A DNA stretch of 64,000 nucleotides from Promethearchaeota archaeon (GCA_030603385.1 JAUVXW010000015.1:16704-80703), one strand, 5' to 3'; counted from the stretch's first letter, positions 37,999 to 48,224 are shown. The notes: generated by a model not told the origin, from the letters alone. A program made the numbers and translations.

Positions 37999-40900
37999 GT
38001 GAAATTGAGAGTAAAAAAGTGTAGGTTTTTGATGGTGAATGGAATTAGTAGAAAAAAGATTTTAGTTATATCGGTCTTATTTATCAGTTTCTTAATGATT
38101 CCTTTTTTAAACAATCTTAACCTAAATCGGAATTTCAATGAAAATGAGCAAAAGTATATTAAAGATGAAGATATTGTTATCCAAAATTTAAAAACTCAGG
38201 ATCTAACCACTGATAATATATTTAGTGGGATAGGAGCTGCTTGGAATGTATCTCATTGGGCTAAACGAACGGATTATGACGAATCAGTAAAATTTGGAAA
38301 CGGAACATCTTATTCAGTTTATATGGATTTAGGTACTGATTGGGAAGGTTACCAATTAAACGGAACGATTAAAGAATTATATGATAAAAGAAATTGGGTT
38401 AATGGATCTTTTAATGCTGGACCTGATGATGATAATCCTAATTGTCCCGATAATGATAGCCTTTATCTTACAGATTGGATGTTTGATTATAGAGAAACTT
38501 CAGGAGGGGCAGGTGATCCTCCTTATGAAAATACATTTTCTGGAAATTATTTCAACAGTACGAATGATCCTTCTGGTACTGGCAATGATTGCTTAGAATT
38601 GAGAATGGATGGTGAAGGAACGGGTTATGATCAATATGATAGATGTTGGTGGGAGTCAAATTTTACTCTCCCTAGGGGTGATGTAATTGAGGGAGAAGTC
38701 TCTCTTGCAATGTATCCTAAAAGCCAATATGACGAAACTCGCGATTATGGAACTCATTGGAGTATTCAAGTTATCCTAAATGGAGTAGTAATTGACGATA
38801 AAAATCTATTATGGTTAAATCAAACTGGAAAGGGTGATTGGGTTCCTTTAAAATTACAATTAACTAATTGGTTAGACAACCCTGTAGTATTTCCAAATGG
38901 TGTGAAAAATATGTCCCTTAGGATCCAATTAATAAGAAATGGGGGAACTTTATCTTATGGACCTTATGGAACATATCAACAAGTTCTTATTGATAATGTA
39001 TCCTTAACAGTAAAATCACAGGTAAATGCAACTCAAATTGGGTTACAAATGAACGAACAACCAGTATCTGATAGTAATGAATGGGGCAATGGAATAGTAG
39101 AACAAATTAGTTCTTGGACTACAACTCCTCTTGACGTTAAATTTAACAGTACTGAAGTTAGACCTTCAGAAATGGGTGGATATGAGGTAGAATTTAAAAC
39201 AGACTTAAATCTATTCGCAAAAAAAATGAATAGAGAGTCTCATTATCAACCTAACTTTTTGGGAACAAGTTTCGAGGTAAAAAATGACAGTTCCGTAGAA
39301 TGGGAATGCTATGCGCGTGTTTCTGTTCCGACAGGATATAGTGAATCTAATATGACAATCAGATTCCCTGAAGACGTTAATATAACTTGGATTTCCAATG
39401 CAGAAAAACCAAATACCAATATATTAAAATATTGTGATAATTCAACTCTAGGGATAATAAAAGTATCTAATTTTTCAGAAACACCAGATGGTTTTTGGTG
39501 GGTGAAAGGTAAATCACCTAATTATTGTACTGAGCTAAATATCTATAATGACGTTACAGGTCAATGGATTCTTAATAATACCTTCCTTAGTGGAGATTCT
39601 ATCAATATAACTGGAAAAATCGAAAGTGCTGGGCTTGATATTTCCGGATATATCGGAAATACTAAAGCAAAACTTTACATAAAATTTCCAAACGGGATGA
39701 TTTGGGCAGCAGAAAATCAAATAAAACAGGTCAATGATAATGGATTTGTATATTTTGATCCTATTATAATACCTAATAATGTACCAAATTATGAAGCAGG
39801 AGAATATGAAGCAATTATTACTTGGAATAACTCTTATTCTTCGTTTGGATTAAACGAGACTGGAATTATTTATAAAAGATTTAATGTTATTCATGATTCG
39901 ATACTTGAACCTGATCAAGGTATTTACTTCATCGAAAACGTAATAGATGATCGGATTATAAATATAAAAGTGTCTTATAAAGATAAAATAGATGTTACGG
40001 CAATAGAAAACGCATTAGTATATACAAACTTTGCAGGTGAAGACCATAATCTCACAGAAATAAGTCCAGGATTTTATTTATTCGAATTCAATGCGAGTAA
40101 AGCTAATGCTGGGAACAATACTTTAACAATTTTTGCAAACTCTACATATTTTTTGAATAAAGTAATAAATGTTACTGTTGACGTCGTAAAAGAAACTCTT
40201 CTCACCGTAGAAAATGAATTTTTTACTGTTGCATGGAATGATAATTTTACAGTGAAATTTAACTATACTGAAAAGAATACTGGAAGTGGAATAAACGCTT
40301 TTGATGATGTTAATATAACTTGGAACGGTGAATATCATTTGATCCAACCGATCGATGGACAGTATGAGCTTGAGTGTAATACATCAACTTATGATTCACT
40401 TACTCTTCAATCATTCATCATTTCTATAAATCCGTATAAGTATGAAGCTCAATCTGTTCTTATTAGAGTACAAATAACAGAATTAGAATCTTCTTTAAGT
40501 TTATTTGTAAATGATATCCCAACAAACTACAGTGATACAATTCAAGTTGAATTAGGAGAAACTATAAATATTACAGTTCAATATAAAGACAACTTAACAA
40601 CGAATCATCTTCCTAATGCAACAGTTGAGTTATTAGGAATTGACTTTCTAAATGATACAAAGGATCAGTATACTTTAATTATAGGAGAAGAAGTTTTGGA
40701 TCAGGGAATCACAGCTTTGACTATATTTGCCCAACTGGTTAATTACAAACCTCAATCAATTAACTTTTTCATTGAAGTGGCAGAAAAAGAGACAAATTTA
40801 CAATTATTATTAAATAGTGAAGAAAAAACTCTTGATCCTGTATATAATCTTACAATAGGTGAGATATTAAATATAACAGTAAAGTATACAGAACAAACTG

Positions 40901-46271: not shown

Positions 46272-48224
46272 GTGTCTAATGAAGAAGATTCAGCAACAAT
46301 GCAGGTATTAGAACTTATCGGACTAGCCCATGACGAGGTTGATACTTATTTCAAGATAACAGGAAGAGGACCTGTAATGATAGGTGAAATTGCTCTTATC
46401 GCAGATATAGCTGAGGAAAGAGCAGCAGAAATTGCTTCAAACTTATTCCAAAAGGGGCTTCTCAAACAAATACCTGGTAAAGCTCCTATTTATGAAGCTT
46501 TACCCCCATATGCCGCACTTTTAGGTCAAATTCATCAATTTAAAGAAGCAATAAAGACATTTCAGCAAGTAACTCCAAAAAATATACAAGAACGATTTGA
46601 TTCATTAGAAACTCATTCAACCAAACTTAAAAAACTAGATGATTACCGTAGTTACCTTCAAATAATGAAGACAAAATTACCAGAACAAATTAAAACTCAA
46701 TTTGATAGATTTGAGAAGGAACTTGAACAAGTAAATAGATTCCGGGATGTTAGAAGCTTTATTCTTAATTTAAAAGAAATAGTTCCCGCGGAAATTACAA
46801 AAGAGTTTGGTGTCATGGAGACCCGTTTGGATTCAATGAAAACAGAGATTTCAAATAGATTTGAAAAACAATTTAGGATTGGCGCATTGAAAAGTATGGC
46901 CGAAAAAATTGTTTCTCGAGTAATCTCGGAGCAGTTCAAGGATATAACTGTGGTTTTTCGGGATAAATTTGTACAAACTACACAAAATATGTTAGATCAA
47001 GTGATAGAACAATTAGGAAGCATTACTGATACTGCTGGTGAGATAAGCAGTGATCTAGGTACGGTATTTTCAGATATAGAACATGGACTGAAAACTACTT
47101 TAGAAGATTTAGAGAACAGAGTTTCAGGAGTTTATGATGACGTTATTTCAGGAATAAACGAATTGAAAGATTTATTTAGAACAGAGATTTTCGAGACACT
47201 TCAAAATGACATCATAAATAATATTATCAATCAATTAGATAGCGCCGAATTAACAATGAATGAATTTTGGCAACGGTCTAAGAAAGCTTCATTGTTAAGT
47301 TTTAAGGATGTTTGGTTTGTTAGAAGTGTTGAAGGTATCAAGGCACAAATTAATGAATCACTTACTCGTGTGAAGATGCGGGTTCATATAGTTGCTCCAA
47401 AATTAGAAGATATTGATCTAGTTGCACTTACAAGACTAAAAAAACATATAAATATAAGGATTTCAACAAATTTTGATCTAAGTAATCCAGAAGATCAAAT
47501 GAGATTTAAACAAATTGCAGAATATCCAAATGTTGCGTTAAGACATTATGGTAGAGAAAATTTATGGTCTATAAACAAAGATTTTGAAGAAGTTATAGTT
47601 AGTGTGCTGTCACAAACAGAAGGAGGTGAATTACAAATCGCTGGAATGGGTTCTGTACTTGAAGAACACGTAAAATTATTTGCGGCTATGTTAGAAGATG
47701 TATGGATACAAAGTAAAAAGTTGGATCAAGTAGAAGTCTTACACGAATTAAGAAGGGCTCCTGAACCTATTTTACCTAAAGAAAGACCTACACCATCAAT
47801 ACCTGCACCTATATCAAGAGAACCAGAAAAAATAACACCCACAGTTCCAGAACGACCATCAGTAATTCAACAAGAACCTATTAAACTTGAACCTATTGTG
47901 AAAATTGAAGCTCCAATAGAACCACCTATAATTGAACCAGGACCAAGTATGTCTACAGCAGCTATAGGATCTACAGATGCATATCTTTCAAGCCAGATTG
48001 ATAAATTAATAAACAATTTACCAAATATGACAGGTTATGACATCGCATCAGAATTACAAAATATACAAGATGATATTCTTGAAAGAAAAGGTTTTAGTGC
48101 CGTTCTTAGGCAAATAAGGATGGGGATAACACCTTTAAAATCTAATCCAAATTTACTTAATCCGCCTGAAAGGCAAGAATTGATTAATAAGATTAATTTT
48201 TGGCGAAGTAAATTAAATATTTAG
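46272..48224 (+). CDS. TrmB-like HTH, long amphipathic coiled coil, TrmB effector-like domain, Pro-rich linker, small helical C-terminal domain
   Basis: LIGL..DE..TYF....GP...EIA..L.QKGLL..YEALPP; VWFVRS..I.AQI..; PEPILPKERPTPSIPAP; GTG start after GGTGA. Confidence 0.7.
   Translation: MSNEEDSATMQVLELIGLAHDEVDTYFKITGRGPVMIGEIALIADIAEERAAEIASNLFQKGLLKQIPGKAPIYEALPPYAALLGQIHQFKEAIKTFQQVTPKNIQERFDSLETHSTKLKKLDDYRSYLQIMKTKLPEQIKTQFDRFEKELEQVNRFRDVRSFILNLKEIVPAEITKEFGVMETRLDSMKTEISNRFEKQFRIGALKSMAEKIVSRVISEQFKDITVVFRDKFVQTTQNMLDQVIEQLGSITDTAGEISSDLGTVFSDIEHGLKTTLEDLENRVSGVYDDVISGINELKDLFRTEIFETLQNDIINNIINQLDSAELTMNEFWQRSKKASLLSFKDVWFVRSVEGIKAQINESLTRVKMRVHIVAPKLEDIDLVALTRLKKHINIRISTNFDLSNPEDQMRFKQIAEYPNVALRHYGRENLWSINKDFEEVIVSVLSQTEGGELQIAGMGSVLEEHVKLFAAMLEDVWIQSKKLDQVEVLHELRRAPEPILPKERPTPSIPAPISREPEKITPTVPERPSVIQQEPIKLEPIVKIEAPIEPPIIEPGPSMSTAAIGSTDAYLSSQIDKLINNLPNMTGYDIASELQNIQDDILERKGFSAVLRQIRMGITPLKSNPNLLNPPERQELINKINFWRSKLNI

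Follow-up and report, generated by a model that had tools for sequence, protein, structure and literature searches.

A candidate Lokiarchaeial gene cassette joining variable, KYPP-tailed surface proteins to a cytoplasmic longin adaptor

NPRL2 is an arginine-finger GTPase-activating protein (GAP) for RagA/B, Rag-type GTPases with a Roadblock domain, and in the Ragulator-Rag-SLC38A9 assembly on lysosomes a membrane-anchored longin/Roadblock platform docks small GTPases, with the tail of a membrane protein inserting. In NPRL2 and NPRL3, a longin domain is followed by two or more winged helix-turn-helix (wHTH) repeats (Levine et al., PMC3747258). 'NPRL2-like' longin proteins have been reported in Asgard archaea, most of whose eukaryote-signature genes lack conserved neighbourhoods (Liu et al., bioRxiv 10.1101/2020.10.19.343400). 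Roadblock- and longin-GTPase fusions are also known from these archaea; in MK-D1, the GTPase genes are not generally in operons with Roadblock or longin genes, no surface link is mentioned, and it was called difficult to find pairing partners from genome layout among the hundreds of Asgard longin, Roadblock and GTPase genes (Tran et al. 2024, PMC10933270). Here we describe five genes in a 64-kb window of DNA from a Promethearchaeota archaeon (GCA_030603385.1, JAUVXW010000015.1:16704-80703; G000:C53:16704-80703 in our numbering), whose genome comprises 3.9 Mb in 58 contigs; close homologues are labelled Promethearchaeota/Lokiarchaeota. They encode three surface proteins (S1227, S514 and S548), a 375-amino-acid (aa) adaptor (A375) and a 650-aa TrmB-like protein (T650). 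The literature found, outside subscription journals, holds no mention of the surface proteins, their shared tail or this cassette; the link between surface protein and adaptor is apparently undescribed, and NPRL2-like Asgard longins as such are already known.

The surface genes, A375 and T650 are linked, as indicated by their synteny, by paralogous cassettes with exclusive co-occurrence of tail and adaptor, by gene fusions and by a predicted complex. Open reading frame (ORF) calls place all five genes on the plus strand, as a preliminary description of the sequence had it, and the two close junctions that it noted are exact. S548 and A375 abut without a gap, the DNA reading GAAATG TAA ATG CCA with the stop codon at 45123-45125 and the ATG at 45126, and an 18-nt spacer containing AAGGTGAG separates A375 from T650, which starts with GTG at 46272, 10 nt after a GGTGA motif. 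The gene order is conserved elsewhere. In all 19 related genomes for which upstream DNA was fetched, one to three same-strand surface genes (513-1353 aa), most of them with a KYP-type tail, stand directly before A375, and 10 of the 20 surface/A375 junctions in these genomes have zero gap. Comparison of coordinates from two family-wide searches put T650 directly downstream of A375 in 27 of the 33 other genomes holding an A375 orthologue, the six exceptions lying mostly at contig ends. One relative (L078; G121:C96) carries a tandem-duplicated cassette, S956-S948-A374-S1353-A375-T667.

Furthermore, we observed the same pairing outside this locus. An ORF scan of the whole 3.9-Mb genome with a broader form of the tail motif found 10 occurrences in 7 proteins, and all 7 adjoin or are fused to an A375 homologue, a co-occurrence far beyond chance. 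In a paralogous class with the tail 'ARIPxFVKK...SLLYPSKEE', the surface protein ends 0-3 nt before the adaptor start at 28 of 29 loci of other genomes. The association extends to fusion: a 2090-aa protein of the host genome, encoded partly within the window, is a single chain in which an A375-like domain is joined to a surface ectodomain and its membrane helix, with the tail 'AKIPNFVKKVR'. Fusions of 1330-2548 aa (including P0041, P0075, P0089, P0091 and P0094) likewise run from ectodomain through helix and the same tail to adaptor, in the order that the separate genes have. In the wider family, most pairs of surface protein and adaptor occur without T650.

Cryo-tomography of a cultured Lokiarchaeon has revealed many unidentified surface proteins (PMC9834061). 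S1227, S514 and S548 are membrane-anchored surface proteins, as first described, each with an N-terminal hydrophobic segment, one C-terminal membrane helix and a basic KYPP tail. S514 and S548 are 44% identical. S1227 contains 41 N-x-S/T sequons, and the sequon density is 2.0-3.3 per 100 residues in the surface proteins compared with 0.3-0.8 in the two soluble proteins. Pfam and NCBIfam hold no family for any of the three, PDB sequence searches with S548 and S1227 gave chance-level matches only, and ESM Atlas feature searches returned only unnamed Asgard clusters. Between genomes, the ectodomains are domain-shuffled and 36-52% identical; in the same genomes, A375 is 74-84% and T650 70-86% identical. 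The tail common to the three proteins reads Y-x4-KYPP-x-VRK-x-RKL, and the aligned tails follow Y-x4-[KR][YF]P-x-x-VR[KH]-x-[RK]K ... R, with six invariant columns. The tails comprise 70-80 residues behind the membrane helix and carry a charge of about +13 within the first 35 residues.

Other surface proteins of the host genome depart from this plan. At one locus (L011; G000:C8:22060-32356, minus strand), two proteins (1813 and 1145 aa) each repeat the unit in tandem, so that one reading frame encodes two ectodomains, two KYP tails and four membrane helices. At two others (L014:2188-4368, G000:C58; and L015, G000:C31:40899-45068), the surface proteins carry a different cytoplasmic domain of ~250 aa behind the membrane helix, with the motif 'SGxPIxSxSYS ... 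LFSGFIQAI', and one of the two has an ectodomain of the S514/S548 type. Neither hhalign nor Pfam linked this ~250-aa domain to the A375 family, and we rejected it as a member.

How might the tail and the adaptor meet? Complex prediction with A375 and the KYPP tail of S548, the pairing that the preliminary description had suggested, gave an interaction prediction score from aligned errors (ipSAE) of 0.80, compared with 0.01 for the best of three controls; the ipSAE mark is reached by 58 of 80 solved complexes and by 2 of 110 mismatched pairs, a rough guide here, as our own alignments were used. Contact agreement among the runs was at least 94%, and the partner had a predicted local distance difference test score (pLDDT) of at least 69. 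In the model, tail residues 9-51 would contact the wings of both winged helices of A375 (217-230 in the first, 335-343 in the second), the segment 246-258 and the C-terminal helices (345-373), leaving the longin domain free. Near-invariant residues of the interface are P224, P341, L366 and L369 in A375 and P9, V12 and R36 in the tail, and the interface is more conserved than the rest of A375 141-375 (0.48 vs 0.39, one-sided p = 0.03). The charges are complementary, the +13 of the tail facing neutral-to-acidic winged helices.

The adaptor itself was modelled with AlphaFold2 from an alignment of 59 sequences (pLDDT 95.6; predicted template modelling score 0.89), and its matches were sought among 48,161 chains. 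Model and fold searches agree that the protein starting at 45126 has an N-terminal longin fold followed by two winged helices, much as had been supposed. Residues 1-110 follow the longin order beta-beta-alpha-beta-beta-beta-alpha, and the top matches of this domain were FNIP2 (Z 12.0), the Lst4 longin (11.8) and FLCN (11.6), followed by NPRL2 (8fw5_B; Z 11.1, root-mean-square deviation (rmsd) 3.3, 130 residues), the longin of a Lokiarchaeal Roadblock-Longin protein (Z 11.0), C9orf72/SMCR8 (Z 9.7-10.5) and the SRX domain of SR-alpha (Z 8.8-9.1). The winged helices best matched ArsR, PadR, MecI and cullin (of the cullin-WHB kind) at Z 7.4-8.2. DENND1A uDENN matched at Z 10.3, but the uDENN of DENND1A/B covers the first ~150 residues only. 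Consequently, of the uDENN/longin reading in the preliminary description, the longin-type fold stands, whereas a DENN protein is rejected: there is no cDENN or dDENN, and the rest of the chain consists of two winged helices rather than a DENN core.

The closest described relatives in architecture are NPRL2 and NPRL3 (yeast Npr2/Npr3; GATOR1/SEACIT), which have the same domain order and size as A375. Foldseek aligned NPRL2 chains along the full length of A375 (probability 0.96-0.98), and NPR2-family clusters were the nearest non-Asgard models in the ESM Atlas that span residues 1-372. On the other hand, A375 differs from NPRL2/3 in having no Pfam NPR2 match, no conserved arginine finger and no DEPDC5 partner; no Pfam or NCBIfam family matched at E <= 1 for the whole protein or at E <= 5 for its halves. 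Moreover, the prediction has its winged helices gripping a surface-protein tail, and in many relatives the module is fused to such a protein, neither of which has been described for NPRL2/3. C9orf72, the arginine-less subunit of a longin GAP pair, contains WD and GP motifs, W33-D34...G38-P39 (PMC12290439). A W-D-x3-G motif with the same spacing stands at the beta1-beta2 turn of A375 (W10 in 50, D11 in 42 and G15 in 53 of the 59 sequences), with proline following G15, at position 16, in only 8 of 59; we take this positional likeness as a lead only. A375 thus resembles C9orf72-SMCR8 and FLCN-FNIP in its longin fold but differs in having no DENN core and no identified arginine-bearing partner.

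A survey of 1.8 billion proteins, grouped at 50% identity, yielded 236 representatives of the A375 family, which is found in 218 of 301 sampled Asgard genomes: in all members of some families, with near-absence from others. Other fusions (P0070, P0120, P0027, P0015 and P0016) join the adaptor module to SIR2_2 with TPR or to TPR only; in those with helix-hairpin-helix domains, the partner is its winged-helix part. Such varied fusions make the adaptor a reusable module with other outputs.

For T650, the preliminary description had given a TrmB, coiled-coil, effector and proline-rich architecture, and both Pfam and the structural model with its fold search agree with it. TrmB (PF01978) matches aa 14-79 at 27.0 bits against a cut-off of 25.6, an annotation shared by most orthologues, and the NCBIfam TrmB equivalogs reach 20 bits against a cut-off of 600. 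The wHTH best matches 3r0a_B (Z 10.3) and TrmBL2 (5bpd_A; Z 10.2, spanning 4-465). Behind it, two helices of ~120-135 residues form a 260-residue hairpin (79-341). Residues 346-494 form an alpha/beta domain that matches the PLD-like subdomain of the TrmB effector (sugar-binding) domain in 2f5t_X (Z 10.1, rmsd 2.5, 109 residues, 17% identity) and also 3qph_A (Z 9.8). T650 is therefore like TrmB and TrmBL2 in its wHTH and PLD-like subdomain, with no evident sugar-binding barrel, and unlike them in its inserted hairpin, its acidic wHTH and its added Pro-rich linker and Vps28-like bundle. The wHTH is net acidic in 28 of 28 sequences (-1 to -6), with a median net charge of -1 for the recognition helix. 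As a result, although the HTH and effector fold of a TrmB regulator are present, the ligand-responsive DNA-binding role proposed for T650 is doubtful.

The C-terminal four-helix bundle of T650 (567-650) finds its best match in the C-terminal domain (CTD) of yeast Vps28 (2j9u_A; Z 11.4, rmsd 2.5 Å, 86/94 residues). Helical bundles match easily, so that a Z of ~11 lies within the chance range and values below about 13 are not decisive. The bundle has the size and topology of the Vps28 CTD of ESCRT-I (endosomal sorting complex required for transport) but no sequence signal: there was no Pfam (per-member) or PDB profile match to Vps28, and the hhalign probabilities were 0.6% and 12.5%. A genome search with PF03997 at E <= 10 left T650 unmatched and found the genome's own Vps28 (C41:57186-57743 and C30:54468-54740). 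As modelled, the likeness is one of fold only. The C-terminal third of T650 is missing in several genera. Its disordered Pro-rich linker (window 47754-47969) holds PSIP and PTVP, and in eukaryotes motifs of the P[ST]xP type are ligands of the UEV domain of Vps23/TSG101. Across 28 related sequences, the linker contains 23 such motifs compared with 12 expected by shuffling; we rejected this roughly twofold excess as ESCRT evidence because it is too weak.

The five genes probably form two transcription units, S1227 alone and S514-S548-A375-T650, because an oligo-T run directly follows the S1227 stop and a TATA-like element stands before both genes 1 and 2. This repeated element, also conserved upstream of surface genes in two other genomes (L008 and L009), may act as a promoter. 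Contigs from four metatranscriptome runs of one study, 90-99% identical to the stretch of the window that they match, bear on transcription. The A375/T650 junction is bridged in three runs (X1 record 7, 45300-48118; X2 record 12; X3 record 20), so that contigs of relatives cover both genes. In one contig, an S1227-like tail is followed immediately by A375, S514 and S548 being absent (window 41421-45138), which shows that the surface-gene set varies among close strains and that tail and adaptor are retained. These contigs, spanning the A375/T650 and a surface-tail/A375 junction in close relatives, are consistent with co-transcription but do not prove it. Most of S1227, S514 and S548 is not covered by the relatives' contigs, which come from strains with other surface cassettes; since the cassettes differ, the lack of cover says nothing about the expression of the surface genes here.

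A Roadblock/LC7 gene lies upstream on the minus strand. Its orthologues are 89-95% identical across genera and stand beside the cassette at 10 of the 13 loci with enough upstream DNA; in one genus, the gene is adjacent to and co-directional with a surface gene. The copy in the window has no ATG, GTG or TTG at the orthologue start but ATT behind a GGTG motif, its N-terminus reading ISIDTKSF compared with MSVDTKSF in the orthologues of one genus. The Roadblock protein is a possible partner of the longin domain. In other contexts, the family has GTPase neighbours: Roadblock-fused GTPases adjoin it in four other Asgard families and in the host genome. Among five distant Asgard genomes, a gene for a ~285-aa Roadblock-like plus Ras/Arf GTPase lies beside the adaptor at 4 of 10 full-length loci, and at one further distant locus a surface protein with a 'FKYPKIIRKIRG' tail lies upstream of the adaptor. 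In the host genome, Roadblock-Ras GTPase genes are convergent to the 2090-aa fusion gene and to one pair on C10. Two genes for Roadblock plus Ras GTPases lie beyond the 2090-aa gene (C53:12414-13337 and 10121-11104; 307 and 327 aa). A GTPase motif scan of the 30 best-matching loci of the same family found no GTPase within 1.5 kb. These loci hold orthologues of one paralogue, behind which stands a RuBisCO-like gene, and the GTPase link is therefore not general.

Could the basic tails hold a longin platform at the archaeal membrane? We consider it slightly better than an even bet (a probability of roughly 0.55) that the locus is a conserved Lokiarchaeial cassette coupling a longin platform in the cytoplasm to the cell surface. 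Its single-pass surface proteins, glycosylated and variable, would be receptors or adhesins, and their strongly basic juxtamembrane tail (Y-x4-[KR][YF]P-x-x-VRK-x-RK) would dock in A375, in an acidic groove between the pair of winged helices and the C-terminal helices. The FLCN/NPRL2-type longin of A375, thus kept at the membrane, would be available for pairing with a small GTPase and a Roadblock/longin partner. T650, made from the same transcript, would be a third, scaffold-like component, with a wHTH that more probably binds protein than reads DNA. The role of the A375 longin is suggested by the roles of longins elsewhere and by the GTPase and Roadblock neighbours; we infer the pairing with a GTPase and Roadblock protein, the role of T650 and the output, be it signalling, anchoring or sorting. 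Of the Asgard sorting or signalling module of the preliminary description, the physical link between surface protein and adaptor is supported by the fusions and the predicted complex, whereas 'sorting or signalling' is conjecture. The concept is that of Ragulator-Rag-SLC38A9, with no homology implied; here, the membrane would be that of the cell and the anchors would have large, variable ectodomains, and the tail is predicted to sit on winged helices rather than on the GTPase/Roadblock part as with Ragulator.

Several points weigh against the cassette as a longin platform. The binding of the S548 tail to A375 is predicted, and its scores express model confidence rather than a measurement. No column of the A375 longin (residues 1-110) that is at least 70% conserved among the 59 members holds Arg or Lys, the two together amounting to at most 0.05 in these columns; a canonical arginine-finger GAP role is therefore unlikely, judging from the alignment. 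There is no GTPase gene in the window's cassette, and the Roadblock and SDR genes may perhaps just be part of a conserved syntenic block. An A375 orthologue occurs patchily, in 34 of 61 genomes of the host family, so that the cassette is accessory. Since the tail motif persists in cis in the fused forms, it may have a purpose other than recruiting the adaptor, such as lipid binding, topology or another partner. The T650 model has low overall confidence (pLDDT 61.5; PLD-like domain 67-84), with usable domains. Finally, the RNA-library contigs may include DNA and do not prove a single transcript.

Other readings start from T650. If it were a TrmB-type regulator that binds DNA, A375 and the tails would keep it at the membrane until ligand binding by the ectodomains or by the PLD-like sensor domain released or activated it; the locus would then be an outside-in transcriptional switch, perhaps controlling its own surface genes by way of the repeated upstream element. 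The above-cut-off TrmB HTH, the TrmB-type effector domain (Z 10.1), the tight A375-T650 linkage (27/33 genomes) and the conserved element before both S1227 and S514 would fit. However, the wHTH is acidic in every one of the 28 sequences, the element resembles an ordinary BRE/TATA promoter, several genera have T650 without its C-terminal third, and most surface-adaptor pairs of the wider family do without T650; we consider such a switch unlikely. The other end of T650 raises ESCRT-linked cargo sorting, in which its Vps28-like end and the paired, ESCRT-II-like winged helices of A375 would connect the tails to the Asgard ESCRT machinery for surface-protein turnover or vesicle budding. Vps28-C is found in many multidomain Asgard proteins, including ones with longin and HTH domains, and is held to bind ESCRT-II winged-helix pairs (Makarova et al., PMC11188069); the Vps28 CTD was the best match of the bundle among all 48,161 chains searched, and the P[ST]xP count exceeds expectation (23 vs 12). 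Against this stand the lack of sequence support for Vps28 (PF03997, hhalign), a Z of 11 that is within chance for helical bundles, winged helices closest to ArsR, PadR and cullin rather than to ESCRT-II, the absence of an ESCRT gene nearby and the loss of the C-terminal module in some genera, and we regard sorting by ESCRT as very unlikely.

Alternatively, A375 might not signal at all but read the basic tail as a sorting signal and help insert, position or assemble the surface proteins, comparable to SRX of the signal recognition particle receptor. The SRX matches of its longin (Z 8.8-9.1), the strict one-to-one abutment of the genes with translational coupling and the position of the tail directly behind the membrane helix are what an escort factor would predict. 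In the fusions, however, the adaptor is permanently attached, which better fits a working cytoplasmic domain, and the GTPases near the family are Ras/Arf-like with Roadblock, not SR-beta-like; a role in biogenesis is quite unlikely. That the genes are mere neighbours in a conserved syntenic block, as the equally syntenic SDR and Roadblock genes of no obvious relation might suggest, is hardly credible: the fusions already contradict it, as do the independent paralogous cassettes at four other places in the genome, the exclusive co-occurrence of tail and adaptor and the predicted complex.

Table 1. Features of the cassette and related loci. Positions are window nucleotides unless a contig or aa is given.
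Feature	Position	Strand	Description	Basis
Promoter-like element upstream of S1227	37871..37904	+	TTTTAATAT ... ATTATCCTA	repeated at 41749-41782
Second copy of promoter-like element, upstream of S514	41749..41782	+		sequence repeat
S1227 (1227 aa)	37999..41682	+	N-terminal signal/anchor, sequon-rich repeat ectodomain; helix aa 1141-1159	
S1227 basic KYPP tail	41473-41679	+	aa 1159-1227	motif and membrane-helix analysis
S514 (514 aa)	41902..43446	+	N-terminal anchor, ~400-aa ectodomain module, membrane helix aa 417-435	
S514 KYPP tail	43204-43443	+	aa 435-514	motif and membrane-helix analysis
S548 (548 aa)	43479..45125	+	S514 paralogue; membrane helix aa 455-473	
S548 KYPP tail	44901-45122	+	aa 475-548	motif and membrane-helix analysis
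A375 (375 aa)	45126..46253	+	longin aa 1-110, linker helices, winged helix 1 aa 141-224	
A375 C-terminal half		+	winged helix 2 aa 260-340, C-terminal helices aa 341-375	AlphaFold2
T650 (650 aa)	46272..48224	+	TrmB-type wHTH aa 8-78, coiled-coil hairpin 79-341	
T650 C-terminal parts		+	PLD-like 346-494, Pro-rich linker 495-566, Vps28-CTD-like bundle 567-650	model and fold search
Roadblock/LC7 gene (151 aa)	36131..36586	-		Pfam Robl_LC7 1.6e-9
Cassette in this window			three surface genes, A375, T650	
Cassette on C8			three surface genes facing A-like plus T-like pair	
Cassettes on C10			two surface-to-A-like pairs, 0 or -1 nt gaps	
Fused cassette	C53:13413-19685	-	one 2090-aa protein; N-terminal part at window 1-2982	

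The genes flanking the cassette are of other kinds. A HEPN plus nucleotidyltransferase gene pair (30293-31293, plus strand) and two genes for AAA_15/AAA_21 ATPases, one of which ends in DUF3696 (49754-56639), probably belong to toxin-antitoxin or defence systems that have no relation to the cassette. Directly behind T650, a 177-aa ORF (48264-48797, minus strand) matches the last ~160 of the 376 positions of DUF6786; it looks truncated, as the syntenic gene in L009 encodes 354 aa. A tRNA scan of the 64-kb window found no tRNA gene.

Returning to the cassette as a surface-linked longin platform, it offers a concrete, testable pairing of tailed surface proteins with an NPRL2-like adaptor, with defined residues on both sides and with the Roadblock protein and the TrmB-like scaffold as further candidate partners. 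If the binding is confirmed, a eukaryote-type GTPase-docking module would lie at the archaeal membrane under variable ectodomains, which would bear on the pre-eukaryotic origin of membrane-associated GTPase regulation and of cell-cell interaction. Tentatively, and in our view rather improbably, such cassettes could be receptor-coupled small-GTPase switches, in which the ectodomain would sense a partner cell, a surface or a ligand, and the tail-held longin adaptor together with Roadblock would control a Ras/Arf/Rag-like GTPase. If that were true, the longin/Roadblock GTPase platforms of eukaryotes (GATOR-Rag-Ragulator and DENN-Rab) would descend from an archaeal cell-surface signalling device.

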